Assembly (NCBI GenBank): GCA_040751795.1
Contig: JBFMHR010000001.1
Location: forward strand, 384,001 to 448,000
Direction: 5' to 3'
Origin: Thermoplasmatota archaeon
GTDB taxonomy: Archaea > Thermoplasmatota > Thermoplasmata > UBA10834
DNA: 64,000 nucleotides
In this document: in pieces, positions 6,582 through 29,156 of the stretch
Layout of the letters: each line of letters begins with the position of its first letter
How positions within the stretch are numbered: the stretch's first letter is position 1
Translations under genes and position numbers: made by a program
The notes under the pieces: generated by a model
What the model saw: only the letters and a program-made list of their open reading frames with translations
What the model was told of the DNA's origin: nothing
The model's database searches: none

Positions 6582-6666
6582 GCAGGGATAGCCAAGCCTG
6601 GCCAACGGCGATAGATTCAGGGTCTATTCGCGAAGGCGTCCGCCGGTTCAAATCCGGCTCCCTGCA
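6582..6666 (+). tRNA. trnL: tRNA-Leu(CAG), CCA not encoded
   Basis: Acceptor stem GCAGGGA/TCCCTGC with discriminator A; anticodon arm ATAGA-TTCAGGG-TCTAT; long variable arm; T-arm GCCGG-TTCAAAT-CCGGC. Confidence 0.95.
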
Positions 6667-6702
6667 CATCGCGACATCTGGCTATTTTCAAATCAGAGGG
6701 TT
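6652..6702. repeat. attL: 13-bp core plus left inverted arm
   Basis: Core at 6652-6664. Arm TGCACATCGCGACATCTGGCTATTTTCAAATCAGAGGGTT (6663-6702) matches the reverse complement of 32353-32392 at 34/40 positions (manual count). Confidence 0.9.
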
Positions 6703-6726: not shown

Positions 6727-7926
6727 CTACGGCTTTTCCGCGAACGCTTCCTCGAGCTCCCGGAAGGCGTCTTCGGACCGTATCCGCGCGTAGTAGAGTT
6801 CGGTCGTTCTCGTCGTTCTGTGCCTCAGCGCCTTGGACACAGACTCGATCGACGCGCCCCGGTCCTTGCACATCTGCCCGAAGGTCGCTCGCAGATATTG
6901 CACCCGGAAGGGTATCCCCGCGTGCTTCTGCGCATCATCCTTCATGCTGCCCCACATGCCGTCGGTCCAATAATCTACTCGGCCGTCCCTGTAGATCCGG
7001 GGCACAAGGGGCTCACATTCGCCCACGCCGTTCTCAGTCAGGTACTTCGTCCTCGCCTTGAGGAAGTCGAGCACCGTCTGTCGGGCGGGCTGCAGGATCG
7101 GCGCTGTGCCTGCGGAGGCATAGCGCGTCTCTCCCTTCGGGTGGCTCACGAGGACTCTCCACTTGGAGATGTCTATGTCCTGCAGTCGGGCCTTGCGCAG
7201 CTCAGACCGTCTGAGCCCTGTGTACGCGTACATCGCGACGGCGAAGCGGGCCACCTCGCCGTCCCAGCCGGGCATGTTCGCCAACTTGGCCCGTAGTTCC
7301 TCCACAGTGGTCTGCTCCAGGGTCCTGATCTCCGGGGAGACCTTCTGAGGGAACCGGACGTAGTGTAGCGCTCGCATCCGGTTCATGACCGGGTTCTCGC
7401 ATATCAACAGCATCTCGGCCAGGAATGCAAGGTAGTTCGCCTGCGTTGCTGGCCTCAAGCCGATTCCGGTCTTGGTCTTGCGGTCCTTCATCCACTGGAG
7501 GAATGCTTCGATGTCGGCCTGAGTCATCTTCCTCGGGTTGATGGTCGACACCTTGCCCTTCTTCCTGAGCGCCTTGAACGCGTCTCCGATGACCTTCAGG
7601 CCCCTCGTGATGGTCCTGTGGGTCGATGCCGCGTAATAGGGCCGTACGGCCTCTAGGAAGGCGTTGGCGCAGGGGTTGAACGGGTTGCGCCCACCCACAG
7701 ACCTCGCCCTCCTCGGACGGCCTCTTCTCGTTCTGCGCGGGGGGTTTTGCTCCGAGCGGTTATTGGTTCGGCTGCTCTTGCTGTTGGCATCCGGCACCGC
7801 TCCGGAGGCGAGTTGTCTACCACCATGTGGTAGTATCCTCTCCTCAAGAACGGTATTCCTCTCCGGAGCCGTTAATGCTTCGCCCCGGGCGACTCCCATG
7901 TGGGAGTCGGACACCTTCTCCTCCAT
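6727..7926 (-). CDS. Tyrosine recombinase/integrase
   Basis: Catalytic motifs YTGLRRSEL (R), HPKG (K), QYLR (HxxR with His->Gln), LRH and TELYY (Y). It sits directly next to the tRNA 3' end. The start codon is uncertain because of a disordered N-terminal ~75 aa. Confidence 0.93.
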   Translation of the reverse strand: MEEKVSDSHMGVARGEALTAPERNTVLEERILPHGGRQLASGAVPDANSKSSRTNNRSEQNPPRRTRRGRPRRARSVGGRNPFNPCANAFLEAVRPYYAASTHRTITRGLKVIGDAFKALRKKGKVSTINPRKMTQADIEAFLQWMKDRKTKTGIGLRPATQANYLAFLAEMLLICENPVMNRMRALHYVRFPQKVSPEIRTLEQTTVEELRAKLANMPGWDGEVARFAVAMYAYTGLRRSELRKARLQDIDISKWRVLVSHPKGETRYASAGTAPILQPARQTVLDFLKARTKYLTENGVGECEPLVPRIYRDGRVDYWTDGMWGSMKDDAQKHAGIPFRVQYLRATFGQMCKDRGASIESVSKALRHRTTRTTELYYARIRSEDAFRELEEAFAEKP

Positions 7927-8172: not shown

Positions 8173-8326
8173 TTCTTCACCTCCGCATCAGGTCGGCCGG
8201 GAGACCCCCCCCCCAGCCGCCTAATGTCTACCATTGTATACATTATACTGACTCATAAATCTTTTCATGCCATGCATATAGGCCACAACATTGATATCCG
8301 GCTGTAGACATTCAACCACGATACCC

Positions 8327-9028
8327 ATGGCGAAGAAGAATCCCCCCGCGTCCACTGGCAGCCTTGAGAAGTCCAAGGAGTTGCTCGTCCTGGCATACTT
8401 CCTATTCACCGGCAACAAACCCGCATCTGCCGACAGGGTGGTCGAGTACTGGTCCCCTGAGGGAACCGGGGTGAAGGAGGAGGTGCTTCCCGAAGGCGTC
8501 GGACCAGACGAACGGAGTCTCTCGAGAGCAGGTGCGGCCAAGATCTGCAAGCGCCTAGTCAGTGAAGGACTTCTATTCAAGAGGGAGCGACTGGGATACA
8601 GGAACAAGATGGTCAACGAGTACTACCTCCCATCTGGTTCGGAATTCCTGATGGTCGGCGAGAGGATCATGAAGACCTACCCGATGCTGGCACTCAGAAG
8701 CGACTACGGGAAGGAATGGCTCCGAACCAGTGCCATTCCCAGACTGTGCAGAACCCTCAGAATCGACCTGAAACCCTGGCTAGGTGACATTGAATGGGTG
8801 GCGGGGAGATCACCGACTGTGTTCACCATGATGACTGACGATACGATTAAACATGGCTCCGCTGCACGCCTCGAATCCGAGAAAGAGAGGATCTCCGCAT
8901 TTCTTGAATTCCTCATATGCGCGGTGAAGGTGGACATGATGTCGGGAGCAAAGGGGCTGCTGCTTGACGGAGAGACCTCGCGAGAAGTCACAGACCGGCT
9001 CAGAGATACAATCAAAGGATTCACCTGA
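8327..9028 (+). CDS. Winged-helix DNA-binding protein, divergent from the RHH/integrase genes
   Basis: LSRAGAAKICKRLVSEGLL...EYYL fits a wHTH recognition helix and wing; ATG at 8327. Confidence 0.65.
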   Translation: MAKKNPPASTGSLEKSKELLVLAYFLFTGNKPASADRVVEYWSPEGTGVKEEVLPEGVGPDERSLSRAGAAKICKRLVSEGLLFKRERLGYRNKMVNEYYLPSGSEFLMVGERIMKTYPMLALRSDYGKEWLRTSAIPRLCRTLRIDLKPWLGDIEWVAGRSPTVFTMMTDDTIKHGSAARLESEKERISAFLEFLICAVKVDMMSGAKGLLLDGETSREVTDRLRDTIKGFT

Positions 9029-9216
9029 TGTTGTTGACTGGGCGTGCCATCTGCTTCATCGAGACTGATACCGAGCAGGGCATGTTGATGAGACTCTCCT
9101 TGACGGAGACCCGCTTCCGAGGTGTATTCTTGGTGAGATGAGAATCATATTCTGACGTAGCCGTTTGAGTCCGATTCGCTGATATCTTCATGGTGACGCA
9201 CGCGAATGCGCGAATT

Positions 9217-9717
9217 ATGATTAACTGGAAATTCTACCCGTTGGCCGAGAGGATTCCTCCCCATCTCGTGAAGGTCATCGAGGTTCTCGAGGGCAAGTCG
9301 GATCACATCTCTTCATCCGATCATGAGCTGAACAGCAACGATGTACTCGCGACGTTGAGAGAAGATCTCGAACACCTGGGATACATAGTCGAGAGAGGAT
9401 CCAAAGACAGGATCAGAATGCCCGTCCTATACGGAGAGAACGGAAAGGTGGAGAAATCCTTCGACGTCGATGCCTACGATGAGTCGACCGGAACAGTCAT
9501 CGAGGTAGAGGCCGGAAGGGGAGTGACGAATCATCAGTTCCTGAAGGATTTCTTCGAAGCATGTACGATGCATGATGTGGAGTACTGCACGATTGCCGTT
9601 CGGAACACCTACCTACGGCGCTCGGATTTCAAAGCTGTCGCCTCGTTCATGGATGCCCTGTACGCGAGCGGCAGAATCTCACTGCCGCTGAAGGGTCTAC
9701 TCGTGATCGGATATTGA
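9217..9717 (+). CDS. Restriction-endonuclease-fold (PD-(D/E)xK-like, BglII/BstYI-type) nuclease
   Basis: FDVDAY...VIEVEAG...FLKDF pattern of acidic catalytic residues; ATG 9217 (MINWKFYP). Confidence 0.6.
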   Translation: MINWKFYPLAERIPPHLVKVIEVLEGKSDHISSSDHELNSNDVLATLREDLEHLGYIVERGSKDRIRMPVLYGENGKVEKSFDVDAYDESTGTVIEVEAGRGVTNHQFLKDFFEACTMHDVEYCTIAVRNTYLRRSDFKAVASFMDALYASGRISLPLKGLLVIGY

Positions 9718-10111: not shown

Positions 10112-12268
10112 ATGTGCAGAATGCCTGTGCCAGCAAGTTCGACAGAGGCGGTCGTTCAGCAGTCGTTTCCGACAGAGCATGGATCTGTGGAAGGACTTCG
10201 TTGTGAGTCTAGGTGCAAGACGCACAAGCACGACCCCTGGGGCAAGTGGCCATCCACCACGAAGATCGTGATCCCCATTCTTGCAGAGCACCCCTGTTAT
10301 GACCGCACCTGGGGCCTGGAACCCAGAGACGGACGCTGGAAGACCAGGCTTGCCGACTCCATCGAGCGTCGTAGGAGACGCATCCCGTCTGGAACAAGGG
10401 ATCGTCAGGAGATCCTCGATGCTATCGACAGAGTGACCCTCAGGACGTATCATGCAGCTAGAGTACTGCAGACCCATTTCAACAACCCGTCGCATGAGAA
10501 CTACCGGGATCCATTTCTCGAGACAATGTACATAATGCTCACTTGGAGGACCAGGATCCCCGACGCCAGAGCCCGTTTGAGGGACATAATGGACTCCTTC
10601 AAGGGCCCGCGTGCGCTCCTCAGCGAAGATGGACTCCTGCTCCTCAGGAACATCATCAAGAGGTCAGGTTTCTCTGGAAAGAGACCTGAGATGATTACGG
10701 AACTGACGAGACGATTCATCGAAGAGTTCCCTGACGGCGACACGCAGGTGATGAGAGCCTGGAAGGACGACGAGATCATCCGGTTCCTGACAAGCATGCC
10801 AGGGATCGGTTTGAAGTCTGCCCTTTGCGTGATGATGTACTCCCTAGATAGAGATCGATTTCCGATAGACACCCACGTTGGACGTGTGCTCAAGAGAACT
10901 CAGATGCTCAGAGAGCTTGTCACGGTGGGACAGGACACGGATCACAAGACCGTCCAGGCAACGGCAGAATTCGCGGCGCCTCCGAGCGCGAGGATGGCGA
11001 TTCATGCAGGATTGGTGTCACTCGGTCAGACGATATGCAGAGTCGGTACACCGTCTTGCGGCAAGTGCCCGATCAGACATGTCTGTGAGTATTACAGAAT
11101 GATGACCATTGAGAACACTGAGGGTGCGCTCTACAGTCACGTCGACCTATTCTGCGGGGCCGGAGGCTTCTCTGAGGGGTTCTCGAAGGAGAGGTTCAGG
11201 ACGGTTCTCGCTGTTGACTTCGACCAAGACGCGTGCGAGACGTTCAGAATGAACCATCCGGGGATTCCCGAAGAGAACGTTGTGTGCGAGGATCTGGCCC
11301 GACGCCAAGTGAAGACATTCATCAAGAATCACATCAGAGGACGCGAACAACTCAGACCGGGAGCTGTCGACGTTCTCACAGCAGGAATTCCTTGTCAGGG
11401 ATTCAGCAAGGCTGGCTACAGGTCACGACCCGGTCTGAGATATGAACCACTCAAAGATCCAAGGAATCTACTCTACAGGCGCGTGCTTCTCTGGATTCGG
11501 GATCTCAAACCGAGATACATCGTTCTGGAGAACGTCCCCGAGATCAGATCAGCAGGTGGCAAAGAGGCTAGCATTCTCGACACGATCTGCCGTTCCCTGG
11601 GCAAGCTTGGGTACCGGGTAGACAGCGGCGTCGTCAATGCTCGAGACCATCGGGTCCCGCAGACGAGGTACCGCATGATTGTCATTGCATCCCATCAGTC
11701 GGTTCCCGAGGTGAAGATAGAGGATCTAGGAGGACACGGAAAGAAGGGATCGACCCTCGGAAGAGCGATAGGAGATCTCCCTCCGCTGACCGACAGTGGG
11801 AACCCATACTATCTCAACTGGTCTGGCTCAGTCCTGACAGGTCATGTTTCCAGATCCAACAATGATGATGACCTAGAGATATTCGAGGCCCTTGAACCGG
11901 GGGAGAAGTACCAAGACTTCGCGAAGAGAAGAAAGGATATACTGCAGGCCAGGCGAAGACGCGGGAAGCATGCAGTCTACGGTACCAGGAGCTTCGAAGA
12001 CAAGTACTACAAGCTCGATCCAGATAGTCCATCAAGAACCATCGTCGCCCATCTGCACAAGGATGGAAACGGCTACATCCACCCATTCCAAACACGGTCG
12101 ATCTCAATCCGTGAGGCAATGCGCCTCCAAGGATTCCCCGATGACTACATATTCTGTGGAAGCGCCACCAGACAGTATATCCAGATCGGAAATGCTGTCC
12201 CCCCGCCTCTGGCAAGAGATATCGCGCGCCTCCTAGCCCAGAATCTCAACTCCGCATGGAGAGTGTGA
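10112..12268 (+). CDS. Fusion of HhH-GPD (EndoIII-like) DNA glycosylase/lyase with [4Fe-4S] and C5-cytosine DNA methyltransferase
   Basis: N-terminal part has HhH PGIGLKSA...FPIDTHV (K and D 18 aa apart) and CRVGTPSCGKCPIRHVC (Cx6Cx2Cx5C). It continues in frame into MTase motifs DLFCGAGG, GIPCQGFS, ENV, QTRYR, REAMRLQGFPDDY and QIGNAVPP. Confidence 0.92.
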   Translation: MCRMPVPASSTEAVVQQSFPTEHGSVEGLRCESRCKTHKHDPWGKWPSTTKIVIPILAEHPCYDRTWGLEPRDGRWKTRLADSIERRRRRIPSGTRDRQEILDAIDRVTLRTYHAARVLQTHFNNPSHENYRDPFLETMYIMLTWRTRIPDARARLRDIMDSFKGPRALLSEDGLLLLRNIIKRSGFSGKRPEMITELTRRFIEEFPDGDTQVMRAWKDDEIIRFLTSMPGIGLKSALCVMMYSLDRDRFPIDTHVGRVLKRTQMLRELVTVGQDTDHKTVQATAEFAAPPSARMAIHAGLVSLGQTICRVGTPSCGKCPIRHVCEYYRMMTIENTEGALYSHVDLFCGAGGFSEGFSKERFRTVLAVDFDQDACETFRMNHPGIPEENVVCEDLARRQVKTFIKNHIRGREQLRPGAVDVLTAGIPCQGFSKAGYRSRPGLRYEPLKDPRNLLYRRVLLWIRDLKPRYIVLENVPEIRSAGGKEASILDTICRSLGKLGYRVDSGVVNARDHRVPQTRYRMIVIASHQSVPEVKIEDLGGHGKKGSTLGRAIGDLPPLTDSGNPYYLNWSGSVLTGHVSRSNNDDDLEIFEALEPGEKYQDFAKRRKDILQARRRRGKHAVYGTRSFEDKYYKLDPDSPSRTIVAHLHKDGNGYIHPFQTRSISIREAMRLQGFPDDYIFCGSATRQYIQIGNAVPPPLARDIARLLAQNLNSAWRV

Positions 12269-12447: not shown

Positions 12448-13959
12448 ATGGCAGAGTACGAGGAGATACCTCCGAGAGCAGATGCGATGGTCGCGTCAAT
12501 GCGAGCTATCGGATACGACCTCTCAATGGCCATCGCAGATATCATAGACAATAGCATCTTCGCCGGAGCCAAGAACATACAAGTCGATTTTGACTGGGCA
12601 GATGGGAGCCCCTGGATACGAATCACAGATGACGGAAGGGGCATGAGTGACGAAGAGCTGCGCGAGGCCATGCGCCTTGGAGGCAAGGGCCCGAATGACA
12701 TCAGAGATCCTGAGGATCTTGGAAGGTTCGGTCTCGGACTCAAGACTGCCTCATTCTCACAGTGCCGGATCCTCACCGTCAGCACCAAGGTAGCAGGCGG
12801 GAGAACATCGACAAGGTGCTGGGACCTTGACGTTATAGAACACACAAAGAAGTGGCAGCTCAGGCTCCTGCCACCAGAAGACGCGGAGCCACTGCTAGAC
12901 GACCTGCTCGAAGTGGATAGCGGTACCGTTGTCCTCTGGCAGAGGCTCGACAGGGTCATCGATGGGCCCGACGATATCACCGATGGTGAGACAATCTTCC
13001 GGAAGAAGTTCATCGATGTTGGCAGACATCTCGAGATGGTCTTCCATAGATACCTGAGCGGGCCTGGTAAAATGGATATCTCGATAGGGAGGACCCCTCT
13101 GAGGCCATGGGATCCGTACCTTCTCACCAACCAATTCACACAGGAACTCTCGACCGAGAAGTACGAAGATGGCTCCATAAGGATCATTCCATACGTCCTT
13201 CCGCATGTGTCTAAACGGACTGCAACCGAGACGGCAGCCGGGGCCGGAGTGAAGGGTTGGAACGCACAGCAGGGATTCTACGTATACAGGAATCGTCGGA
13301 TGATAATCTCAGGAGGCTACCTCGACTTCGACATAAAGCCCGAGGAACACTACAAACTTGCCAGAATCATGGTAGACCTGAAGAATAACATGGATAGCGA
13401 ATGGAGGATCGACGTGCGCAAGGCAGTGGCCATCCCTCCAGACCGGCTCAGATCACAGCTCGAGAAGGTAGCCAGAGCAGCAAGAGAAGAGGCGGTCAAG
13501 GTCTACAGGGCAAGAACTGGCCGAGGTAGGAAAGCTGCGCGAACGAACACGCAGGAAGTATGGATCAAAAGGCGAAGAGGTGACAAAATCATCTACGAGA
13601 TCAACCGTGAGAACGAGGCAACCAAGAGGATCCTTGCGGAGATCTCTCCGCCGGAGCGTTGGGTGAAGAAACTCTTCGGGACAATCGAACGAACAGTACC
13701 ACACAGGGAAATCATCATAGACTCGTGTGACAACGAGGACTGTCATGTGGATCTGCCTCCCGAGACAAGCCCACCAGATCGAGGTCTCATCGACATGTGC
13801 ATCGAGATCTACGAAGAGATGAAAGCGAACGGGAGATCTCATGAGGAAGCGTCGGAATATGTTCTTTCTATAGAGCCATTCAATACACATCCATCATTCA
13901 GAGCGACTCTGGACAGTCTCGCAGAGGAGGCAAGCTTACGAACACAAAGAACGAGATGA
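12448..13959 (+). CDS. GHKL/MORC-like ATPase (HATPase_c_3)
   Basis: ADIIDNS, DDGRGM and GRFGLGLKTAS motifs; S5-like second domain with GFYVYRNRR. Confidence 0.9.
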   Translation: MAEYEEIPPRADAMVASMRAIGYDLSMAIADIIDNSIFAGAKNIQVDFDWADGSPWIRITDDGRGMSDEELREAMRLGGKGPNDIRDPEDLGRFGLGLKTASFSQCRILTVSTKVAGGRTSTRCWDLDVIEHTKKWQLRLLPPEDAEPLLDDLLEVDSGTVVLWQRLDRVIDGPDDITDGETIFRKKFIDVGRHLEMVFHRYLSGPGKMDISIGRTPLRPWDPYLLTNQFTQELSTEKYEDGSIRIIPYVLPHVSKRTATETAAGAGVKGWNAQQGFYVYRNRRMIISGGYLDFDIKPEEHYKLARIMVDLKNNMDSEWRIDVRKAVAIPPDRLRSQLEKVARAAREEAVKVYRARTGRGRKAARTNTQEVWIKRRRGDKIIYEINRENEATKRILAEISPPERWVKKLFGTIERTVPHREIIIDSCDNEDCHVDLPPETSPPDRGLIDMCIEIYEEMKANGRSHEEASEYVLSIEPFNTHPSFRATLDSLAEEASLRTQRTR

Positions 13960-16760
13960 TCATTGGCATGTCCCATGCCTGGTTCAGGGACAAGAATGTC
14001 GGACAGCAGGAGATCAGGGACTTCATCGTTAAGATGAGGGGTCTCTTCCCAGATCATGACTTGGACGAGGAATCACTTTTCAGGCAACTCGAGTCGATCC
14101 ACTCCGTCAGGATTGGACGAGAGACCACACTTGACGACAAGAGGGACCACGTTGAATGGTTGAACCCGTCGACGGGAGAGGGACTGAAACGAGAGATTGA
14201 CTGGCACTTCTGGGGCCATTACAGTGACTACCTCTCGGTTGCCAAGGGATGGCCAAGAAACATGGTTCACAGTATCGATAGTCTATCTAGCCAGGTCTTG
14301 TCTAGACTTGAGGATCCTCAGAGACCCGGCCCATGGGACCGCCGAGGGATGGTCATGGGGAGTGTCCAATCCGGGAAGACCGCCAATTACACTGCACTCA
14401 TCACGAAGGCCGCCGACGCAGGCTACAAGTTCATCGTAGTCCTCGCAGGCGTGCACGACAGTCTGAGAAGTCAGACCCAGACGAGACTGAACGAGGAATT
14501 CCTCGGCTACGACATTGACAGAGTGAGGAAGCTCACGGGAGGCGAACGACGGATCGGCGTCCGCGAGATGTTCCCGAATCACAATCCAGTCTACACGCTT
14601 ACGAGCAGTGACCAGAAGGGCGACTTCAGCAAGGTGGTTGCGTCACAGAGCGGCATCTTTCCGAGCGTTGATGGCCACCCGATAATTCTCGTCATAAAGA
14701 AGAACGTCAGCATCCTTCGCAATCTCTACACATGGATACCTTCGGTCATCAGCCAGACAGACACCACAGGGCGGAAACTCATAAGGGACATCCCACTGCT
14801 ACTCATCGACGACGAATGTGATTTCGCGTCAATCAACACGAAGCAGCCGGAGAAGGACGAGAACGGGAAGATAATCGAAGAATGGGATCCCACTGCCATC
14901 AACCGGCTCATACGGCAGCTGCTGCGCCTCTTCGACAAGTGTTCATACGTAGGCTACACCGCAACACCCTATGCCAATGTCTTCATCCACATTGATGATA
15001 CTCACCCCCGCTATGGAGAAGACCTCTTCCCGAGAAGCTTCATCGTCAGCCTGCCGCAGCCAAGCAACTACATGGGCCCGGAGAAGGTATTCGGCTTCGA
15101 TGAGGCCGACCGGGCCGTGACTGCATCCGAACCACTGCCCCTTGTGCGCCTTGTCGACGATCAATCTGCGTGCATACCCGAGGGACACGACAAGGAGCTC
15201 ATCGTGGAGGATCTGCCTCACAGCCTCAAGCTCGCCATGAGATACTTCCTGCTCAGTTGTGCGGAGCGACGACTCCGCGCTGAGGGAGTGCCACACAATT
15301 CGATGCTGATCCATGTCACGAGATTCACAGCGGTTCAACAGCAGATCAAGGATCTTGTCGACAGAGAACTGAAAGAGCTGGCATCAAGAATAATGAGCAG
15401 AGACCCGCTCGCGGACTTCCGCGAGATATGGGATAATGACTTCATCCCGACCTCACGTGAGATGACAGATCGTGGATACAGAGACTCATCGACCCACGAC
15501 TGGGATGACATCGAGAAGAGCCTCGGAGTCATCGCGAGAGTCATGAATGTCAGATTGATAAACGGAACCGTGAGAGATGCGCTTGACTACAAGGACGCCG
15601 AGATCGCAGCCACCAGCCGTAGAAGAAGTGGCGAGGAGGTCCCATGGGAGGAGAGAGGCCTGAGCACCATCGTAATTGGAGGCGACAAACTCTCAAGAGG
15701 ACTGACACTCGAGGGACTCACGGTGAGCTACTACCTCAGAGCTTCAACCCTGTACGACACACTGATGCAGATGGGAAGGTGGTTTGGATACAGGAGAGGA
15801 TACTCCGATCTCTGCAGGATATTCACGACGGAGGAACTGGTGTCATCATACCAACACATCGCGCTAGCTACAAGGGAACTCAGGGAGGATATCGAGTACA
15901 TGTCGGAGCTCAGACTCACCCCGAGTGAGTTCGGCCTCAAGGTCAGGAGCCATCCTGGTCGACTAGCCGTGACATCATTGGGGAAGTCGAGGAACAAACA
16001 GAAAGTCTCCCTCTCCTACGAGGGACATATATCCGAGACGGTTGCTTTCAACCCGAGGAATTCACGAACCAACGTCCAGTCTCTCACCAGACTGATATCC
16101 GACATTGACAGGAAACCTGACTTCGAACATGACACGAAGAGGAGATACCACTGGACGGATGTTCCTCCCGAGAGAGTGCTTTCATTCCTCGGCAGGTACA
16201 AGAGTCACTCGGTGGGGACGAGACTCGTCGATCCCAGGGCTATTGCAGGGTACATCGAGAAGCAGAACCTCCAAGGTGAGCTCGTCACATGGAATGTCGT
16301 GGTCGTCTCGAAGGAAGTTGCCAGCGGACCCGATGACGAGGACGCGACGCACTTTCTCTCAGTCGGAGGCTATGACGTGACCTGCGTGACGAGGAAAGCA
16401 CTGAAGGTGAGTGCTGACAAGATATCGATCCGCAGGCTCGTCAGTCCAGCCGACGAGGCGCTCGATCTGTCCCGAGATGAAATCGAGAAGGCGAGGATCA
16501 TCGACGGGGCGAAGTCAGGGAAGCAGCCCTCCGAGATTGGCCTCCCATCTGGGCCGTCGATCAGACAGGCGAGACCAAAGGAACGAGGTCTGCTGCTAGT
16601 CTATGTCATCTCTGGAAGAGATGATGCGGGTACAATCTACGGCGACGAGGGGCACGAGGTTGTGGGTTTCGCCGTCAGTTTCCCCAAGAGCATGACCGCG
16701 GAGCCAATTGAGTACTGGGTCAACCCTGTATATCAGGAAGAGGACCAGCACTACACCTGA
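13956..16760 (+). CDS. Z1-domain protein (SF2 helicase-like nuclease subunit)
   Basis: GSVQSGKT, IDDECD, GYTATP, LSRGLTLEGL and DTLMQMGRWFGYR motifs; 4-bp overlap with the upstream gene. Confidence 0.92.
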   Translation: MIIGMSHAWFRDKNVGQQEIRDFIVKMRGLFPDHDLDEESLFRQLESIHSVRIGRETTLDDKRDHVEWLNPSTGEGLKREIDWHFWGHYSDYLSVAKGWPRNMVHSIDSLSSQVLSRLEDPQRPGPWDRRGMVMGSVQSGKTANYTALITKAADAGYKFIVVLAGVHDSLRSQTQTRLNEEFLGYDIDRVRKLTGGERRIGVREMFPNHNPVYTLTSSDQKGDFSKVVASQSGIFPSVDGHPIILVIKKNVSILRNLYTWIPSVISQTDTTGRKLIRDIPLLLIDDECDFASINTKQPEKDENGKIIEEWDPTAINRLIRQLLRLFDKCSYVGYTATPYANVFIHIDDTHPRYGEDLFPRSFIVSLPQPSNYMGPEKVFGFDEADRAVTASEPLPLVRLVDDQSACIPEGHDKELIVEDLPHSLKLAMRYFLLSCAERRLRAEGVPHNSMLIHVTRFTAVQQQIKDLVDRELKELASRIMSRDPLADFREIWDNDFIPTSREMTDRGYRDSSTHDWDDIEKSLGVIARVMNVRLINGTVRDALDYKDAEIAATSRRRSGEEVPWEERGLSTIVIGGDKLSRGLTLEGLTVSYYLRASTLYDTLMQMGRWFGYRRGYSDLCRIFTTEELVSSYQHIALATRELREDIEYMSELRLTPSEFGLKVRSHPGRLAVTSLGKSRNKQKVSLSYEGHISETVAFNPRNSRTNVQSLTRLISDIDRKPDFEHDTKRRYHWTDVPPERVLSFLGRYKSHSVGTRLVDPRAIAGYIEKQNLQGELVTWNVVVVSKEVASGPDDEDATHFLSVGGYDVTCVTRKALKVSADKISIRRLVSPADEALDLSRDEIEKARIIDGAKSGKQPSEIGLPSGPSIRQARPKERGLLLVYVISGRDDAGTIYGDEGHEVVGFAVSFPKSMTAEPIEYWVNPVYQEEDQHYT

Positions 16761-16764
16761 TGGG

Positions 16765-17772
16765 GTGGCGGAAACGTTGCGTGATCTCGAATCAATCTGG
16801 AAGGAACTTGAGGGTCGATATGCCGGGGAAGATGGGGTCTATCGAAGACTCGATCTCGCACACGAAACAGGAATAAGAATGGCGGTACTCCATCCTGGTC
16901 GGACGTGGGCCATCTTGGTCGAAGTATCTCCAGAGGATGTCACCTCACTGATTCCACCTCGATGGCGTGGCATGGGGGTGAGCGTGCTGCCACACACGGG
17001 CCCGGTGCCGTCCATGAAACACATCTGCCTCTATGTGGAGGCGTTGGAGCATAGGCCAGTATTCACCGCCTTGTGTACCGACATAATCAGGACCCTTGAA
17101 TCGTCTTCCGTCGCGCAACGCATGGAAAATCTCCAACAGTGTTTTCTCCGCTGGTCAAGATTCTTCGAGAGGTGGAACCAGGAGGGAATGACGCTTGAAA
17201 GACAACGTGGACTGCTGGGTGAGCTCGAATTTCTCGACATGCTTCTGAGGCGTCAGATACCGATCTTCACATCAGTGTCCTCGTGGAAAGGGTGCGATGG
17301 AGGCGTACACGATTTTGCGCTCGGAAGGAATGCTATCGAAGTCAAGACCACGGTGATGAAGGAACCTCGCAAGGTACGAATCAACAGCGAACGGCAGCTA
17401 GATGATGGACATCTCGAATCGCTGGTCCTATTCGTAGTGACTCTTCAAGAAACTGAGGCAAACGGCGTTACCCTACCGGACAAGATATCGGAACTGAGGA
17501 AGGTGCTCGAGAATGATATGAATGCAGCCAGCCTTTTCGAAACTCATCTGATATCTTCAGGTTATGTCGATTCCGACGCTGAGAAGTACACGAGTGGTTA
17601 CGTGATCAAGAAGAAGGAGTCGTTCGCCATCAAGAACGGTTTCCCTAGGATAGTATCTCTCCCATCGGGTCTTGGCGACCTTCAGTACACCTTGACGCTG
17701 TCGGCATGTGAACCCTACAGAATCGACATCGACGAGATGATGAACACATTCACCGAAGGTGCAGGCAGATGA
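16765..17772 (+). CDS. PD-(D/E)xK motif protein (DUF4420-type)
   Basis: GLLGEL...W.G....HDF...IEVKTT...INSERQLD motifs; probable GTG start at 16765. Confidence 0.88.
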   Translation: MAETLRDLESIWKELEGRYAGEDGVYRRLDLAHETGIRMAVLHPGRTWAILVEVSPEDVTSLIPPRWRGMGVSVLPHTGPVPSMKHICLYVEALEHRPVFTALCTDIIRTLESSSVAQRMENLQQCFLRWSRFFERWNQEGMTLERQRGLLGELEFLDMLLRRQIPIFTSVSSWKGCDGGVHDFALGRNAIEVKTTVMKEPRKVRINSERQLDDGHLESLVLFVVTLQETEANGVTLPDKISELRKVLENDMNAASLFETHLISSGYVDSDAEKYTSGYVIKKKESFAIKNGFPRIVSLPSGLGDLQYTLTLSACEPYRIDIDEMMNTFTEGAGR

Positions 17773-19781
17773 GCAGTTTCGAAGATGCGTCCAGACGGTT
17801 TCATTCTGAGATAAGCTCTAGATCACTCGGATTGAGTCTCCTGAAGGAACACCAGTTCGTGGAGGATGTCGGCGAGATCTTGGTCGACGCCGGAGAAATC
17901 GAGGACTGCACAAGGTGCTCATATCAGGCCAGAGGCATCAAGGTGGACGGATACTACTACGATGCGGAATTTGGCCAGCTGACCCTAGTCGTTGCTCTGT
18001 GGAAGGACGAGGTAGAAGAGGGAAAGTCCAAGGTGACGAAGACCGAGGTCGATGACACCTTCCATCGATGCCTGAACTTCATCCGGAGGAGTTTCACAAG
18101 CCTATCGGACAAGATTGACATCTCCAACGAGGCACACGACCTGGCAAGCCTAGTCCGGGAATGTCGAGACGAGATTGTTGACGTAACGATAATCATGATC
18201 ACCGATGGGATAACGGAGAGAAGACCTGCGGAGTACGAAACCATCGACGATCTAGATGTCAAGAAGATCATCTGGGACATGAAGAGGATCCTCGACTTCG
18301 TTGAGACAGGAGAAAGGGAGATCATTTCTGTTGATTTCGGAGACCAGGGGAAGATACCCTGCCTCTACGAGACAAACGGCGGTGGAGTCTACACCTCATA
18401 TCTCGCATTTCTACCCGGTGATCAGCTGGCGGATCTCTACTCGCGCTGGGGAACGAGACTCTTGGAAATGAATGTCCGGGTGTTCCTGTCGGCGAGGGGA
18501 AAAGTGAACAAAGGAATCCGTGAAACCATACTGACCAGCCCCAACATGTTCTGCGCGTACAACAATGGCATAACAGTGTTTGCCAGGGAAGTGCAATTTG
18601 TCAAAGAGAACGGTCACGCGGGACACATACTAAGAGCCACAGACTTCCAGATTGTCAATGGGGGTCAGACGGTTGCGTCCCTCTATCATGCCAAGAGGAA
18701 GCAGAAGGCCGACCTGTCCAAGATCCTTGTGCCGATGAAACTCATAAGCATAAGCCACGAGGAGGATATCAGCACACTCGTCCCGCGAATAAGCGAGTAC
18801 TCCAACACTCAGAACAAGGTCTCGCTCTCGGATCTCGCCGCGAATGATGAACCTCATCCCGAACTCCACGAACTCTCAAAGCGGCTGCAGGCACCGGACC
18901 CCACCGGCGGTTCGATCATTACGTATTGGTTCTACGAGAAGGCAAGAGGAAGCTACGAGGAAACGAGGCGACTTGACGCAAAGACATCCGCCAAGGAGAG
19001 GGCATTTGACGCCCTCTACCCCAAGAACCAGAGATTCGACAAGGGATTGTTTGGCAAGGTATGGAACACATATCTTCGAAAACCGTACATCGTATCACTC
19101 GGTGCGCAGAAGAACTTCGCTGAATTCAATTCCTGGCTGAAGGAACAGCAGCACGAACTCGAACCATTCTTCAGACAGACCGTCGCCCTCCTGATACTCT
19201 GGAGGGATGTCGAGAGACTGGTCAGGAAACAGGGATTCGACGGATACAGACACAATATCGTCACATACACACTAGCATGGCTCTTCGAGCTCACCCAATC
19301 CCGAATCGATCTTGAGAAGATATGGCGCGAGCAGAAGTCCGGAGAAGGTATACTATCAGCGACAGAGGAGATGTGTCAGATCGTGAACGCGCATATAAGA
19401 GACACCTCCCAGAACGTGACCGAATGGTGCAAGAAGGAGGAATGCTGGAAGACGCTTCTTGAGAAGGAATGTTCTCTGCCCCAGGACCTAGAATCGAGCC
19501 TACTGGGGCACGATGCCGCTGCTCCAAGGTATGATCCGAGAACCAGGGATGAACGCGAGGCAATCGAATTCTGCCAGGACAAAGGATCACAGGCGTGGTA
19601 TGACTTGGCGTCTTGGCTGAAGGATCACAATTTCCTGACAGGGAAGGCGAGAAGCCAATGCTTCAACATGGGTAGATTCCTCCAGCGAGAGAAGATTCCA
19701 TCACAGGCTCTCTCCTACGCATGCAGGAGAATCTGGCAGGATGCATCTCTTCGCGGATGGAAATGGACCGGCGACACTTGA
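17769..19781 (+). CDS. AIPR family protein
   Basis: LLEMNVRVFL...VNKGI...FCAYNNGIT...QIVNGGQT...NTQNKV motifs; ATGA overlap with the upstream gene. Confidence 0.92.
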   Translation: MSSFEDASRRFHSEISSRSLGLSLLKEHQFVEDVGEILVDAGEIEDCTRCSYQARGIKVDGYYYDAEFGQLTLVVALWKDEVEEGKSKVTKTEVDDTFHRCLNFIRRSFTSLSDKIDISNEAHDLASLVRECRDEIVDVTIIMITDGITERRPAEYETIDDLDVKKIIWDMKRILDFVETGEREIISVDFGDQGKIPCLYETNGGGVYTSYLAFLPGDQLADLYSRWGTRLLEMNVRVFLSARGKVNKGIRETILTSPNMFCAYNNGITVFAREVQFVKENGHAGHILRATDFQIVNGGQTVASLYHAKRKQKADLSKILVPMKLISISHEEDISTLVPRISEYSNTQNKVSLSDLAANDEPHPELHELSKRLQAPDPTGGSIITYWFYEKARGSYEETRRLDAKTSAKERAFDALYPKNQRFDKGLFGKVWNTYLRKPYIVSLGAQKNFAEFNSWLKEQQHELEPFFRQTVALLILWRDVERLVRKQGFDGYRHNIVTYTLAWLFELTQSRIDLEKIWREQKSGEGILSATEEMCQIVNAHIRDTSQNVTEWCKKEECWKTLLEKECSLPQDLESSLLGHDAAAPRYDPRTRDEREAIEFCQDKGSQAWYDLASWLKDHNFLTGKARSQCFNMGRFLQREKIPSQALSYACRRIWQDASLRGWKWTGDT

Positions 19782-20623: not shown

Positions 20624-21325
20624 CTAGATTAGGCTGAATGCTCTCTCGAACAGTTCCTCTCCGTAGTTGCGAATATTCGCACACGAAGGGAATATGCTAT
20701 ATACGATCCGATATTCGCGCGCACTGGCCTTGATTCTCTCTTGAGTGCCCGCCAAGTCGACCACAGACTTGCCACCTCCGATATTTCTGAATCCTTCGGC
20801 TTGCCTCAGCCCCGCTAGTGCCAGCCTTCCAAGGAGGATTATCGTTCGCGGGGACAACGCATTCACTTCTTCACCCAACAGCTCCCGGCCACTGAAGAGT
20901 GCCAACGACTTTGGAGCTCTCACGCTTGCCCTCTTCCTACACTTGATTACATCAGTAAGGAATCGATTCTCTCTCTTGAATGCCGTTAGCTTGCTGCTCT
21001 TAGGCATTCGTACATCGATAGAGAGCAGTTTGAAGATGTTGTCGCTAACTCTTCCAGTGCCGGGGAAATCCACGTCGTAGAAGTAGCCGTTCTCGGGTGG
21101 TGATTCCGCGATGAATAGCTCATCAACTCTGTCTGGCATCCATTCATCGTATACCTTGAACTCCTCGAATGGAAAGTTGTCTGTAATCATCCTTACTTCG
21201 GCTCTTGGATGCTTCGCAAAGAAATCCTGATATAAGCCGCGAATTCTCACAGAATCGACAGACCGCTTGACATCTGAGCCGCACATACCTACTGCTCCGA
21301 ATAATCTGGGTTGCACGAATTTCAA
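20624..21325 (-). CDS. Uracil-DNA-glycosylase-superfamily protein, non-canonical
   Basis: LFIAESPP (motif A-like), FLTDVIKC, IILLGRLA, and IFPS where HPS is usual; TTG start overlaps the GmrSD stop codon. Confidence 0.7.
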   Translation of the reverse strand: MKFVQPRLFGAVGMCGSDVKRSVDSVRIRGLYQDFFAKHPRAEVRMITDNFPFEEFKVYDEWMPDRVDELFIAESPPENGYFYDVDFPGTGRVSDNIFKLLSIDVRMPKSSKLTAFKRENRFLTDVIKCRKRASVRAPKSLALFSGRELLGEEVNALSPRTIILLGRLALAGLRQAEGFRNIGGGKSVVDLAGTQERIKASAREYRIVYSIFPSCANIRNYGEELFERAFSLI

Positions 21326-23127
21326 GCACCAAGGGATGACTGGACTATGATTGGCTCATGACCGAAGACAACGAAGTCCGCAAGCACCCGCATTCTTGCA
21401 GCTCTAGCAATTACAGAGTGTGCATCCCACGCAACACCTTCTGGCATCGATGCATAGTTCAGTACTCTAATAGCTTTGTCGAACCGAGTGTTCAGTGTAC
21501 CAGTTTCCGCAATGTCTGCAGCAATTGACTTCGTTAATCGACAACTGCAGTTCTTGTAGATGCTTCGTTTCGCATCAAACTCTTGTGTCCCAGCAGACGT
21601 ATTCTCGGAGTTCGACAGAAGGGCTAGATTGCCAAATGAAGCAGCGAGATCATCATACTCATTCTCAGGAATGTGATTCCATCCTGATACACGTTCCTGA
21701 GGGGCTATATGCTCGAGTGTGTATCTTGAATAGTCATTGCCATCGAGGGCATGTGCCATCTTCTGAAGAATATGGGCAATCTTCCGCTCGTCACTCTTGG
21801 TCTCGCAGATGAATGACTCAAGCGCGTTGAGGGTAAGCTCCCTACGTTTCTCAACTTCATCATTCAGCTCCTCAACTATTCTCTTGAGGTCATCCACACT
21901 ATCTCTGCCACTGGAAATCCTCCCCGCAACTCGGGTGAAGAGATCCTCGAATTCGTTGGTACGAAGTTTGAGAATGGCTTGTTCAATGGCCAGTCGAGCC
22001 ATGTTCTCACTTATCTGATCGGAGATCTCCTTCTCAGTTCTCCTAATGTCCTCGCTAATCCTACCAGATGCCATCAAGACAACGTATGCCTGTCTGAAAT
22101 TCATGGCGTTTATTGTCTCTAGGTGGGAGAGTTTGGCCTCGTTGGCATACAGTCGGGCGTAGAGGTCCGATGCTTCCTGCAACTCCGTCATGCACAGTCC
22201 GACCTTCTCCTCGTCGGCACTCTCGTACTTCTCTTCGAACCAATCGTAGATCTCGTCCTTTGACTTGTACACACCGATAGACATCAGGTAGTGTTTCAGG
22301 AAGGTGGGGATTGCGACTATGTACTTCCTACGGGAGATAAGTCGGTCTATGATCTTGTTCCACTCGTCTTCATAGGATACCACCCGTTCTTCGACGACTC
22401 TGCTAAGGAGAAGTGCCTTAATTAGATCCTCTGGCTCTAGAGCGACTCCTCTTGAATTCAACGTCATGAAAACCCTGAAGGCGGACCTCTTGTCATTGGC
22501 CTCAGTGAATGCTGTGTATACGCAGTTGTACACGTACTCCATGTATTGATCCAACTTTCCTTCGCCATCGAGTCGGGCAACAAACCTATCGGCCCAGATC
22601 TTTGCATCAAGCATACTCTTCTCGAAAGGGTTCTCAGGCTTCATATCAGACCCGTCAGTGCCTCGGAGTATTGCCTCAAAGAACTTCTTGTCCTTGTCGT
22701 TTGATTCCAGAAAGAACTCGTCAACATACTGGACCGCAGCCTGAGATTGTCGGGCCTTCTTTGTCGAGAGCCGCCCTTGATGGTAACGCTCTCGAGTGTC
22801 ATCTCCCTTTATTCTGTACAGATCTCTCACAGCGGTGATTAGGAGAACGAACGTGGTCAATCTCTGCTGACCGTCAATCACAAGGAGTCTTCTTCTGTCC
22901 TTATCCTTCGCAAAGACCATTGCGCCGATGAAGTAGTTCGATGATGCGTCCTTCGCGAAATTCTCCTCAATATCCTCGAATAGAGAATTGACATCGTCCT
23001 CTTCCCATACGTACCTCCTCTGGAGAATGGGTATCTTGTAGAGCTTTTGACTCGTGGCGAATATTGTGCCAACATTTGTGGCACTCGACTCAAACTGCCT
23101 GACGTCCTCTGTCCGATACTCTGGCAT
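21322..23127 (-). CDS. GmrSD/SspE-like nuclease (DUF262 + DUF1524 HNH)
   Basis: IPILQRRYVW, VIDGQQRLTT and FMTLNSRG in the DUF262 part; LEHIAPQ...FGNLALL...N in the HNH part. Confidence 0.9.
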   Translation of the reverse strand: MPEYRTEDVRQFESSATNVGTIFATSQKLYKIPILQRRYVWEEDDVNSLFEDIEENFAKDASSNYFIGAMVFAKDKDRRRLLVIDGQQRLTTFVLLITAVRDLYRIKGDDTRERYHQGRLSTKKARQSQAAVQYVDEFFLESNDKDKKFFEAILRGTDGSDMKPENPFEKSMLDAKIWADRFVARLDGEGKLDQYMEYVYNCVYTAFTEANDKRSAFRVFMTLNSRGVALEPEDLIKALLLSRVVEERVVSYEDEWNKIIDRLISRRKYIVAIPTFLKHYLMSIGVYKSKDEIYDWFEEKYESADEEKVGLCMTELQEASDLYARLYANEAKLSHLETINAMNFRQAYVVLMASGRISEDIRRTEKEISDQISENMARLAIEQAILKLRTNEFEDLFTRVAGRISSGRDSVDDLKRIVEELNDEVEKRRELTLNALESFICETKSDERKIAHILQKMAHALDGNDYSRYTLEHIAPQERVSGWNHIPENEYDDLAASFGNLALLSNSENTSAGTQEFDAKRSIYKNCSCRLTKSIAADIAETGTLNTRFDKAIRVLNYASMPEGVAWDAHSVIARAARMRVLADFVVFGHEPIIVQSSLGA

Positions 23128-23435: not shown

Positions 23436-24443
23436 ATGTGGGTGACCCTTGAGTTCTATAACGAAGACATCGGACTGACACCAAACGAGAGAAAGCAGCT
23501 TCGGCGAATTAAGGCGAAGCTCACAGAGTCACTCGGAGACGCTCAGGAAAGATACTGTCTCATCGTAGATCTGATAATAGGACCGATCCAATACGACCTT
23601 GTCATGGTGAAGGGCAACGCCATCGCATCGATTGAGCTCAAGGGGTATCGTGGGAACGTGAGGGGAAGAGAGAACGGACGATGGAAGGTCGAGGGACCCG
23701 ACGGAGCCATCGTTGAACTCAACCAAGACAAGAACCCGTTCGCACAGGCGAGAGATCAGAGATACCGTCTGATGGGATATCTAAACGAGAGACTGCCAAG
23801 ACTGTCGAAACGATTTGATGGCACCCCTATACGGAATCTGTCTGCAATAGTGTGCTTCGAAGAGGGCAGCGTCTTCGACCCGTCCCAAATTGAACACAGA
23901 CTCTATCCGTGGTTCGAGGTGACTGACGAAGGAAACCTGGTGGATGCTCTCAGAGCGGTCTCGTCGCGGGAATTCGCCCTGAGGGATTCTGAGATTGATG
24001 CGTTGCTTGAAGAGTTGGGTGTTCTCCAACTGGATCAGGAAGATGTCAATCAGAGTCTAGTGGATGATAGCCCGCAACTCTGGAAGCCTCCCGCCGACGA
24101 CACCGTCATCACTCTAGATGAAGACGAGGACAGAGATGGGGCGACCGGAGACGGAAGATCAGACATAGGCATCAGCAACCTAGATCACCTCACGAGCAGG
24201 CATATCGAATCTGCTCTGGCGACGATCGACCGAACGGCCTGGCCATCCAAGCATGATTCGAAAACCTGGGATCTCGTCGCGCAGGGGAAGAGATATCCGC
24301 CAAAGTATGTCCTGTTCATCTCTAATCAGATTGCGGGTGGCCCGCCCATCAAATTCACAGCTCATAAGGCGAACAGGCATCTGACTAGACTTGGATACAC
24401 AATCGTACGCAAGCATACTGGAGAACCCTGGGCCAGGCGGTGA
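23436..24443 (+). CDS. NERD-domain nuclease with C-terminal ScoMcrA-head-like domain
   Basis: QYDLVMV...IELKGYRG...W...NPFAQA (NERD); C-terminal LTSRHIESAL...WDLVAQGKRYPPKYV...L.RLGYTIV. Confidence 0.75.
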   Translation: MWVTLEFYNEDIGLTPNERKQLRRIKAKLTESLGDAQERYCLIVDLIIGPIQYDLVMVKGNAIASIELKGYRGNVRGRENGRWKVEGPDGAIVELNQDKNPFAQARDQRYRLMGYLNERLPRLSKRFDGTPIRNLSAIVCFEEGSVFDPSQIEHRLYPWFEVTDEGNLVDALRAVSSREFALRDSEIDALLEELGVLQLDQEDVNQSLVDDSPQLWKPPADDTVITLDEDEDRDGATGDGRSDIGISNLDHLTSRHIESALATIDRTAWPSKHDSKTWDLVAQGKRYPPKYVLFISNQIAGGPPIKFTAHKANRHLTRLGYTIVRKHTGEPWARR

Positions 24444-28148: not shown

Positions 28149-29156
28149 TCACGATCTTGTACTGTGGATATGACCTGTTTGAATGTATTTGACGAGAGCA
28201 TTCCCACGAGCTATCATGTCGTCGTAAGTGATTATGTCAATCCGAGAGAGGTGACCTGTCAATAACCTCCTCTGCAACGGATTGTCAGTGGCTTTCTTTC
28301 CAATGACAATCAATGCCCTAGGTCTGAAGACTTTGTAGGAAGGTCTCTTGTCACAGACATCCATATAGGTGAGGACCTGTCCAATAGCAGTTGATAGAGC
28401 CACGTTCAGCTTTGATCTTGTTCGCGTCTTCCGGTCGAAGATCGATTCATTCGGGCCTTTCAACTCAACCAAGTCGAGGAACGAATCATGCCTACGCAAC
28501 ATGAGGTCAAAAATGTGCTGCTTCTTTCCTTTCGGTGGGAAAGCGACATGGCCCTCTATGGACGCATAGTCAAGTCCAAACATCCATGCTGGTTTCTCGA
28601 TTTCGATAAACCTGTGGACCTCGGTTTCCGTAACATCATCCTCACTAACAAGTCTCGAAAACGCATTCAGTGTCCTTCTGTAGTGCATGATATGCTTCTT
28701 ATGTTCGGACAATTTGCCTCTTGCTTCACGACTCTGCTTTCGATAGTGCGCCTTTGCCGCATTCGCCTCTGCCAATTCGGCGCTCATCGCCTCAAATGCT
28801 TCCTCTTGATCATCAACACTGACGGGGCACTCGATGCTGGAGTATGTCCCATCACTGACTGATACTGTGTCAAAGAGGTCATCAACTACATTCCTAGCGC
28901 TTATCCACTGTTCAATCGAGCGAATATTGTAGGTTCTCCATCGTTGCCAGATCTTTGTCTTGGGTCCAGTCCGGTCAATCCTAGCTCTCCACCGCACGAC
29001 CTGCACAACCCTTCTTCCGGTCTCGACTTCGATTGCAGTGTCAACAGTGTAGGCCCATGATTTGTTCGAAGTATGACCTGTGACAATCCTACTCTGGCAA
29101 TCGTATGTGCCGCTGTCCCGAAAGACTCTCCCCAGGAATATCCCCAATGGGGACAC
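28149..29156 (-). CDS. sduA: Shedu anti-phage nuclease (DUF4263) with variant N-terminal domain
   Basis: E.EVHRFI...WMFG...FDLML...VELKGP...LSTAIGQVLTY...ALIVIG...IITYDD in the C-terminal half, after a coiled-coil linker. Confidence 0.85.
   Translation of the reverse strand: MSPLGIFLGRVFRDSGTYDCQSRIVTGHTSNKSWAYTVDTAIEVETGRRVVQVVRWRARIDRTGPKTKIWQRWRTYNIRSIEQWISARNVVDDLFDTVSVSDGTYSSIECPVSVDDQEEAFEAMSAELAEANAAKAHYRKQSREARGKLSEHKKHIMHYRRTLNAFSRLVSEDDVTETEVHRFIEIEKPAWMFGLDYASIEGHVAFPPKGKKQHIFDLMLRRHDSFLDLVELKGPNESIFDRKTRTRSKLNVALSTAIGQVLTYMDVCDKRPSYKVFRPRALIVIGKKATDNPLQRRLLTGHLSRIDIITYDDMIARGNALVKYIQTGHIHSTRS

Follow-up and report, generated by a model that had tools for sequence, protein, structure and literature searches.

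An EndoIII-like glycosylase fused to a Dcm-type cytosine methylase in an archaeal Mza-type cassette: a candidate repair arm for methylated sites

Why would a base-excision glycosylase be built into the same polypeptide as a DNA cytosine methylase? The question is raised by a gene in a 64,000-nt stretch of a Thermoplasmatota archaeon genome (assembly GCA_040751795.1, contig JBFMHR010000001.1, positions 384,001 to 448,000, forward strand). This whole stretch is called the window below, and positions refer to it unless a locus number precedes them. The gene, at 10112..12268 on the plus strand, is a single uninterrupted open reading frame (ORF) of 718 aa that joins an endonuclease III (EndoIII)-like glycosylase to a Dcm C5-cytosine methylase. 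A sequence-only reading of the DNA had recognized this in-frame fusion and offered three options for it, namely a methylase with a built-in arm for T:G repair, a writer and eraser of 5-methylcytosine (5mC) in one protein, or a restriction glycosylase. Comparative genomics favours the first of these, whereas the other two gained no support. On balance, we lean towards the glycosylase being a Vsr-like, methylase-tethered repair arm for T:G and U:G mispairs, a role suggested by the genes with which its relatives are encoded.

The fused gene and its two halves

The fusion is not an assembly artefact, because it is carried by other assemblies and by named genomes, and because a contig from a sequencing run bridges its junction. 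Thirteen other fused proteins from other assemblies (583-730 aa) share 45-84% identity with it over a full-length alignment, and 14 single-ORF fusions were found in named genomes. In run X4, which may be the source sample of the window DNA, a 151-nt contig (record 12) spans the domain junction at 11079-11229 without a gap, in the region where the sequence-only reading had named a stop or frameshift as a danger to its case. The run contigs aligned to the gene were pieces of 151-292 nt, among which this record alone bridges the junction. None of the sequencing runs matching the gene contains half or more of its sequence words, and none is listed as RNA. A 1-nt gap at 11638 was discounted, as it came from a contig that fits over 32 nt only and belongs to another organism.

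Profile and structure searches of each half, as proposed in that reading, identified both enzymes. The methylase half (residues 342-706, 11135..12229) lies well above the cut-offs of PF00145 (E 1.9e-58, 198.9 bits; cut-off 22) and of TIGR00675 dcm (170.7 bits; cut-off 100.65). It carries the FxGxG, PCQ, ENV, QxRxR and GNAV motifs of Dcm-type enzymes, with the catalytic Cys428 of PCQ at 11393-11395 and ENV at residues 473-475. The glycosylase core, of the HhH-GPD/EndoIII type, covers residues 125-333 (10484..11110). When residues 121-330 were searched with phmmer against the PDB, the best match was Deinococcus radiodurans EndoIII-1 (4unf, E 6e-20), followed by ROS1 (7yhq, 1.2e-10), Escherichia coli Nth (2abk, 2.5e-9), MIG (1kea, 5.3e-7) and MutY (about 1e-5). 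The motifs GIGLK235SA and FPID253TH align to 4unf, giving the helix-hairpin-helix and GPD loop of the superfamily, and it is the match at E 6e-20 that secures, at the level of sequence, homology of the N half to HhH-GPD proteins. By Pfam, the same half scores 17.4 bits against PF00730, below the gathering threshold of 26.2, and database copies of the protein are therefore labelled as methylase only. Many relatives exceed this threshold (P0035, for instance, reaches 46.9 bits); for many other members the glycosylase half is likewise sub-threshold, so that current annotation hides the family.

The glycosylase/lyase site and the iron-sulfur motif described in the sequence-only reading were located residue by residue. 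Lys235 (codon 10814..10816) lies in the helix-hairpin-helix motif at the position of the EndoIII lyase lysine, Asp253 (10868..10870) is the catalytic aspartate of the GPD loop, and Cys309, Cys316, Cys319 and Cys325 (11036..11086) form the C309-x6-C316-x2-C319-x5-C325 ligand set of a 4Fe-4S cluster. The lysine and cluster expected of an endonuclease III are thus present, and equivalog-level Nth models were not reached: NF053634, of the DR2438 type, gave 74 bits against a cut-off of 400, and TIGR01083 gave 44.5 against 211.7. Conservation was followed in alignments of 14 close fusions (A1), 34 fused proteins (A2), 30 stand-alone relatives (A3) and six stand-alone glycosylases (A4). Across A2, at 27-84% identity, Lys235, Asp253, the four cysteines and the methylase motifs, among them PCQ, ENV and QxRxR, are all invariant; Asp253 and the four cysteines do not vary in A1 either. 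In A3 the lysine (K167 of that alignment), the aspartate and the cluster cysteines are invariant, with the fourth cysteine conserved in at least 90%. Judged by these residues, the glycosylase half is most likely an intact and active EndoIII-family enzyme.

Upstream of the core, residues 1-38 (10112..10225) are weakly conserved in A1, predicted to be disordered and modelled with a predicted local distance difference test score (pLDDT) below 50. The true start may lie here, and the candidate start codons 1, 4, 6 and 26 are all 5' of the conserved part. They are followed by a helical N-terminal extension (residues 43-124, 10238..10483) that precedes the glycosylase core and is conserved among the 14 close fusions; AlphaFold2 modelled it (about residues 41-130) at pLDDT 90-97, with helices at 71-85 and 98-122. 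The model of the full protein, built on a 34-sequence alignment, reached a pLDDT of 88.1 and a predicted template modelling score of 0.86. Foldseek with this full-length model returned methylase structures only (DNMT1, MET1, M.HaeIII) and was uninformative for the glycosylase half. When compared with PDB sequences, the methylase half (11138-12268, plus strand) matched eukaryotic DNMT1 best (E 3e-31), with bacterial M.HaeIII at E 7e-20 and M.HhaI at E 3e-17.

The glycosylase clade, Dcm and Vsr

The glycosylase clade as a whole is genomically tied to Dcm. An HMMER scan of 1.84 billion representative sequences with the N domain gave 3160 matches at E <= 0.001; among the best 150 of these, 37 are at least 360 aa long, and 33 of the 37 contain PF00145. 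The methylase usually forms the C-terminal part, and in three proteins (P0049, P0059 and P0079) it is N-terminal. In a FastTree phylogeny of 147 glycosylase domains, fused forms are scattered among unfused ones in a way that requires at least 18 changes between the two; the well-supported branches force at least six, plus the three fusions of reversed order. One protein, P0117 (1401 aa), was found to combine a glycosylase-Dcm fusion with two GHKL domains.

The same bond was seen from the side of the loci. The glycosylase is present in 17 of the 80 Dcm loci taken from named genomes, as one ORF with the methylase in 14 and as an adjacent gene in three (L002, L003 and L019, from Deinococcus marmoris, Deinococcus sp. 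SM5_A1 and a Thorarchaeota metagenome-assembled genome). In the two Deinococcus genomes, the Dcm beside the separate glycosylase carries about 210 aa of extra sequence ahead of the methylase domain, without a family match (L002:10925-12700 and its equivalent in L003). A metagenome search with the six stand-alone glycosylases of A4 yielded a further 80 loci, of which 28 are fused, 27 have a same-strand Dcm within 600 nt, five have one within 5 kb and 20 have none. Since one flank is shorter than 1 kb in 16 of these 20, 64 loci are informative, and Dcm is fused, adjacent or near in 60 of them; several of the loci are near-duplicates from related samples, so that the 64 are not independent events. 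As a control, relatives of the separate EndoIII-like gene in the window's own genome were examined in Thermoplasmatota, where Dcm occurs within 1.5 kb in one of 30 loci, and this single exception scores among the highest against the profile of the Dcm-bound clade. Altogether, the clade spans archaea and at least five bacterial phyla, and occurs with, or fused to, methylases of defence islands.

In addition, the glycosylase clade is not found in the same loci as Vsr. The sequence-only reading had seen no vsr-like gene in the island, which was borne out by a profile search of the window ORFs and by the absence of PF03852 matches from the window's genome (92.8% complete), in which the Dcm of the fusion is the only one found. 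In line with the census that it proposed, Vsr was counted in the collected Dcm loci with a profile seeded from the Vsr of L004 (Pfam-confirmed, E 1.4e-22), and no shared locus emerged: Vsr accompanies 13 of 63 Dcm genome loci that lack the glycosylase, and none of the 17 that bear it. None of the 80 metagenome loci, whose flanks are short, gave a match either; pooling them with the genome loci yields p = 1e-5, a figure to be read with these shorter flanks and the relatedness of the rows in mind. The contrast is sharpest in Mza loci, where none of the 13 with the glycosylase has Vsr, in contrast to 9 of the 13 that lack it (Fisher p = 0.0005; the relatives are non-independent). Among the four Vsr-less exceptions, the contigs of L022, L023 and L042 end before the site at which their relatives carry Vsr, and L025 continues for about 830 nt past MzaD with no Vsr in that stretch. 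Furthermore, PF03852 is absent from 12 of 15 other genomes that carry a glycosylase-Dcm pair.

The Mza-type methylases of beta- and gamma-proteobacteria have a C-terminal tail of about 150 aa, which was considered as a fused Vsr and set aside after no Pfam, NCBIfam or PDB match was obtained. These tailed proteins measure 545-562 aa (L017:9977-11662, L020, L021, L022, L023, L025 and L027), and in L017, L020, L021 and L027 Vsr is a separate gene after MzaD.

The constant partner of the glycosylase is the methylase, and not any one effector or defence system. Mza genes lie within 10 kb in 12 of the 17 glycosylase-Dcm genome loci. In L009 and L019 their place is taken by a large helicase, an MZB (DUF1998-type) protein and a PLD nuclease, a set that we take to be class 2 DISARM, and a two-GHKL protein is present in L005, L009, L013 and L014. 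Around the pair in the metagenome loci with good flanks (14), the genes are variously those of Mza, two-GHKL proteins, SNF2 helicases, nucleases of the HNH, NucS-like and Mrr types, or a GHKL ATPase beside a PF20553 methyltransferase, and some of these pairs (L137, L155) sit among plain housekeeping genes. Two arrangements recur. In many bacteria, a two-GHKL protein of 690-870 aa (HATPase_c_3 plus HATPase_c) directly follows the glycosylase-Dcm gene (L005:12170-14239, L009:11971-14148, L013:1195-3798, L096:7990-10056, L105:7920-10085, L135:7742-10009); in L014 a HATPase_c protein lies about 0.8 kb downstream, and in L156 the two-GHKL protein is the second gene downstream, on the opposite strand. 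The other arrangement is a cassette of Dcm and EndoIII-like glycosylase, fused or adjacent, followed by a PF20553 'putative O-methyltransferase' and an opposite-strand GHKL protein (HATPase_c_3), as in L112:4939-9153, L129:4877-8931 and L150:4739-9087.

Proteins of this architecture have been recorded before, and the statement in the sequence-only reading that no characterised fusion of this kind was known proved too strong in this respect. Lim et al. listed 'Nth-Dcm' as novel two-domain proteins of a few genera, including Deinococcus swuensis and Planctomycetaceae AYO40_02595 (FEMS Microbiol Rev 2019; PMC6300522); the listing, in the excerpt of the paper available, gives no function, context, Vsr or defence link, and the proteins are uncharacterised. 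As in those proteins, an EndoIII (Nth) domain is here joined to Dcm (COG0270), and Planctomycetota and Deinococcus relatives occur among the present loci; unlike them, the window copy is archaeal, at about 33-39% identity to the bacterial ones. The term 'Nth-Dcm' appeared in no other paper of the literature searched, the word glycosylase is absent from a survey of archaeal restriction-modification systems (PMC10609329), and no functional or biochemical study of such a fusion was found in a search whose range ended short of subscription journals and REBASE. The gene is thus a new member, archaeal and linked to Mza, of an architecture that had been recorded and left uncharacterised. Added here are the bond with Dcm across the whole clade, the variation in effector genes and the lack of Vsr in loci with the glycosylase.

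Deamination repair and its rivals

Methylation of cytosine at C5 causes mutations, for which Vsr is the textbook remedy. A bond with Dcm that holds whatever the effectors, together with the lack of loci shared with Vsr, fits a repair enzyme that acts on damage arising from methylation. The proposed scheme starts from deamination at the sites of the methylase, where 5mC gives T:G and methylase-promoted conversion of C to U gives U:G, both as established for Dcm/Vsr and Mig.MthI (PMC2714593). The wrong pyrimidine would be excised by the EndoIII-like domain (Asp253, Lys235 and the 4Fe-4S cluster), the abasic site might be nicked in a lyase step of the glycosylase, C:G would be restored through base-excision repair, and the tethered methylase would re-methylate the repaired site. 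The target-recognition domain of the methylase would probably direct the glycosylase to the correct sequence. We infer the T:G/U:G substrate, the lyase step and the targeting alike from sequence and gene context. For the lyase step, the retained lysine is suggestive and not diagnostic, because D. radiodurans EndoIII-1 (DrEndoIII1) keeps the same lysine and is nevertheless mostly monofunctional.

A precedent for this working logic is Mig.MthI, a helix-hairpin-helix glycosylase with an iron-sulfur cluster whose gene presumably adjoins that of the C5-cytosine methylase M.MthTI on the Methanothermobacter plasmid pFV1. According to the excerpted report, it acts on T/G and U/G and counters 5mC deamination (PMC2714593). 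The glycosylase described here is likewise encoded with a C5-cytosine methylase, in this case fused to it. It differs from Mig.MthI in belonging to another lineage (1kea, E 5.3e-7), and Mig is described, again in excerpt, as a monofunctional enzyme of a separate gene with Tyr126 (PMC2714593); the tyrosine that would mark a Mig-type enzyme was not found at the lysine position, where Lys235 is present. The likeness to Vsr and Dcm, the pair of very-short-patch repair, is proposed at the level of function only: in both cases a repair enzyme is encoded with a C5-methylase, but Vsr has an unrelated fold (PF03852), nicks 5' of the T and removes no base. As regards archaea, Vsr is rare, at 0.056 genes per Thermoplasmatota genome in the portion of the survey consulted (PMC10609329).

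The analysis of the clade thus points to a second, widespread remedy for methylation mutagenesis, an EndoIII-derived glycosylase beside or fused to the methylases. If the proposal holds, it would account for the ability of Mza-, DISARM- and GHKL-type systems to bear dense cytosine methylation in the absence of Vsr. The glycosylase would then be a third type of enzyme for the repair of 5mC deamination, besides Vsr and Mig, and the fusion a compact writer-plus-proofreader protein to study.

Several observations weigh against the proposal. Of the characterised relatives the nearest, DrEndoIII1, has thymine glycol and single-stranded DNA as its substrates, and not T:G, according to excerpts of its description (PMC10523315). 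MIG, the known T:G enzyme, is more distant (E 5e-7 against 6e-20) and has Tyr126 at the position where the fused protein keeps its lysine. Neither is the genomic pattern without exceptions. Across all genome loci, with the window added to the 17, Vsr occurs in 0 of 18 against 13 of 63, a weak contrast (p = 0.06), and three of the 15 other carrier genomes do have Vsr, at a distance from the glycosylase-Dcm locus. In the metagenome set, no Dcm accompanies the glycosylase in four of the 64 informative loci. In a Thermoplasmatota locus, L176:259-2217 (minus strand), a 653-aa protein joins a glycosylase to an unassigned stretch of about 400 aa that is weakly TPR-like; its glycosylase domain tops the scores of the Dcm-bound clade profile, and no Dcm lies within 1.5 kb. 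Finally, the constant link to defence methylases would equally fit a role in defence.

The main rival is that the domain repairs another lesion than T:G, either oxidised pyrimidines such as thymine glycol and oxidised 5mC, or 3-methylcytosine, a by-product of C5-methylases. We regard this as unlikely, although the descent of the domain speaks for it: the best matches are EndoIII enzymes and not MIG, and the DTH motif after the catalytic aspartate and the kept lysine are EndoIII-like. DrEndoIII1, which the match over 210 residues shows to share the lysine, the aspartate and the cluster, belongs to the archaeal-type EndoIII group and is active on thymine glycol (PMC10523315, from excerpts). Moreover, linkage to Dcm suits any lesion that arises at methylated sites. 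DrEndoIII1 is, by the same excerpts, a stand-alone housekeeping enzyme, unlike the fused domain, and mostly monofunctional on its substrates. The genome of the window already has a separate housekeeping EndoIII-like gene (contig C34), which scores 167 bits on NF053634 against 74 for the fused domain. A generic enzyme would be expected neither to avoid Vsr loci nor to lie with Dcm as often as this one does (60 of the 64 informative loci, against one of 30 for the housekeeping relatives).

It is more doubtful that the glycosylase is an immune enzyme, which would attack unmethylated sites or foreign modified bases and leave abasic sites or nicks, as an effector or as a trigger for MzaBCDE, DISARM or GHKL proteins. 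Restriction glycosylases such as R.PabI exist, the fused gene consistently stands in defence contexts, and the kept lysine and aspartate would make nicking possible. A further parallel is offered by END nucleases, phage-defence proteins into which an EndoIII-like domain has been recruited and, in the excerpted account, senses modified phage DNA (PMC12191111). That domain has, by the same account, lost its catalytic residues and is fused to a PLD or PD-DExK nuclease with no methylase, whereas the domain described here is catalytically intact and has a methylase as its partner. Against an immune role, the methylase is the sole constant partner while the effectors change, some pairs sit among housekeeping genes (L137, L155), and no sequence-reading domain is present besides the methylase. 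Were the glycosylase an effector, Vsr should accompany Dcm at the background rate of 13 in 63, yet it never does so in glycosylase loci. A more specific version, in which the EndoIII domain would read methylation or foreign modification at the methylase motif and its lesions would serve as damage or as a signal for MzaBCDE, DISARM or GHKL effectors, is distinctly improbable; if true, it would amount to a glycosylase-based discriminator of self and non-self common to several defence systems.

That the domain is a non-catalytic module, binding DNA or sensing lesions so as to tether or regulate the methylase, is very improbable: inactive EndoIII sensors are known among the END nucleases, but the lysine, aspartate and cluster cysteines are invariant across 34 fused and 30 stand-alone members. 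Hardly credible is the writer and eraser, in which the glycosylase would remove 5mC as DEMETER and ROS1 do, since the resemblance to these enzymes noted in the sequence-only reading is real (HhH-GPD fold, the same Lys/Asp arrangement, an iron-sulfur cluster and E 1.2e-10 for ROS1) but weaker than that to the far closer bacterial and archaeal EndoIII enzymes (6e-20), the inserted and C-terminal domains of the plant enzymes have no counterpart in the fused protein, nothing in the loci points to regulated demethylation, and erasing the protective methyl mark would expose the host to the MzaBCDE genes that it carries.

The Mza-type cassette and its island

The fused gene opens an Mza-type cassette, a setting that the sequence-only reading had missed and that was recognized with PADLOC. 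Homologues of MzaB, MzaC, MzaD and MzaE follow directly, in this order and on the same strand: an MzaB-like GHKL/MORC-type ATPase (12448..13959; PADLOC MzaB E 5e-86, PF13589 E 2e-31), an MzaC-like Z1-domain protein (13956..16760; MzaC E 6e-183, PF10593 E 2e-72), an MzaD-like PD-(D/E)XK protein of the DUF4420 family (16708..17772; MzaD E 2e-28, PF14390 E 4e-65) and an MzaE-like AIPR protein (17769..19781; MzaE E 3e-78, PF10592 E 1.5e-88). None of the genes tested gave a PADLOC match to MzaA, and the methylase occupies that position; in the same analysis, DrmMII models also hit the methylase half. Judged by this gene order, the fused gene is the self-marking C5-methylase of an Mza-type defence cassette. 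The mzaABCDE system protects E. coli from T4, as excerpted from a preprint (bioRxiv 10.1101/2022.06.16.496414). In the validated Mza system, mzaA is described as a sigma factor in the part of Miller et al. consulted, which also contains the prediction of Dcm-linked Z1/DUF4420 systems, in which a methylase stands in that place as it does here (PMC9523054).

The cassette lies in a low-GC island that extends from roughly 8 kb to 44 kb of the window, with a GC content of about 0.53 against about 0.68 outside. At its left edge, a tRNA-Leu(CAG) gene was found by ARAGORN (6582-6667, plus strand), next to a tyrosine integrase (6727-7926, minus strand; PF00589). A second copy of the 3' end of the tRNA-Leu, which would mark the right border of the island, was looked for in the window at up to 3 mismatches and not found. 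Two ORFs upstream of the fused gene (8291-9028 and 9190-9717) were considered as members of the unit and placed outside it, because neither family searches nor a tblastn comparison with the 80 genome loci gave a match for them.

Further defence genes accompany the cassette in the island. A GmrSD type IV restriction gene (21322-23127, minus strand) has directly downstream of it a gene for a UDG-superfamily protein (20624-21325, minus strand; PF03167, E 1e-6), the ends of the two overlapping, and these neighbours may be a glycosylase-linked restriction pair. They are followed by a NERD protein (23436-24443), a Schlafen group 3 helicase (25603-27537, minus strand) and a Shedu SduA-like protein (28149-29156, minus strand). 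The low-GC island also contains a 3166-aa ORF (32738-42238, plus strand) that combines RHS repeats with a Kre9/KNH-like Ig domain.

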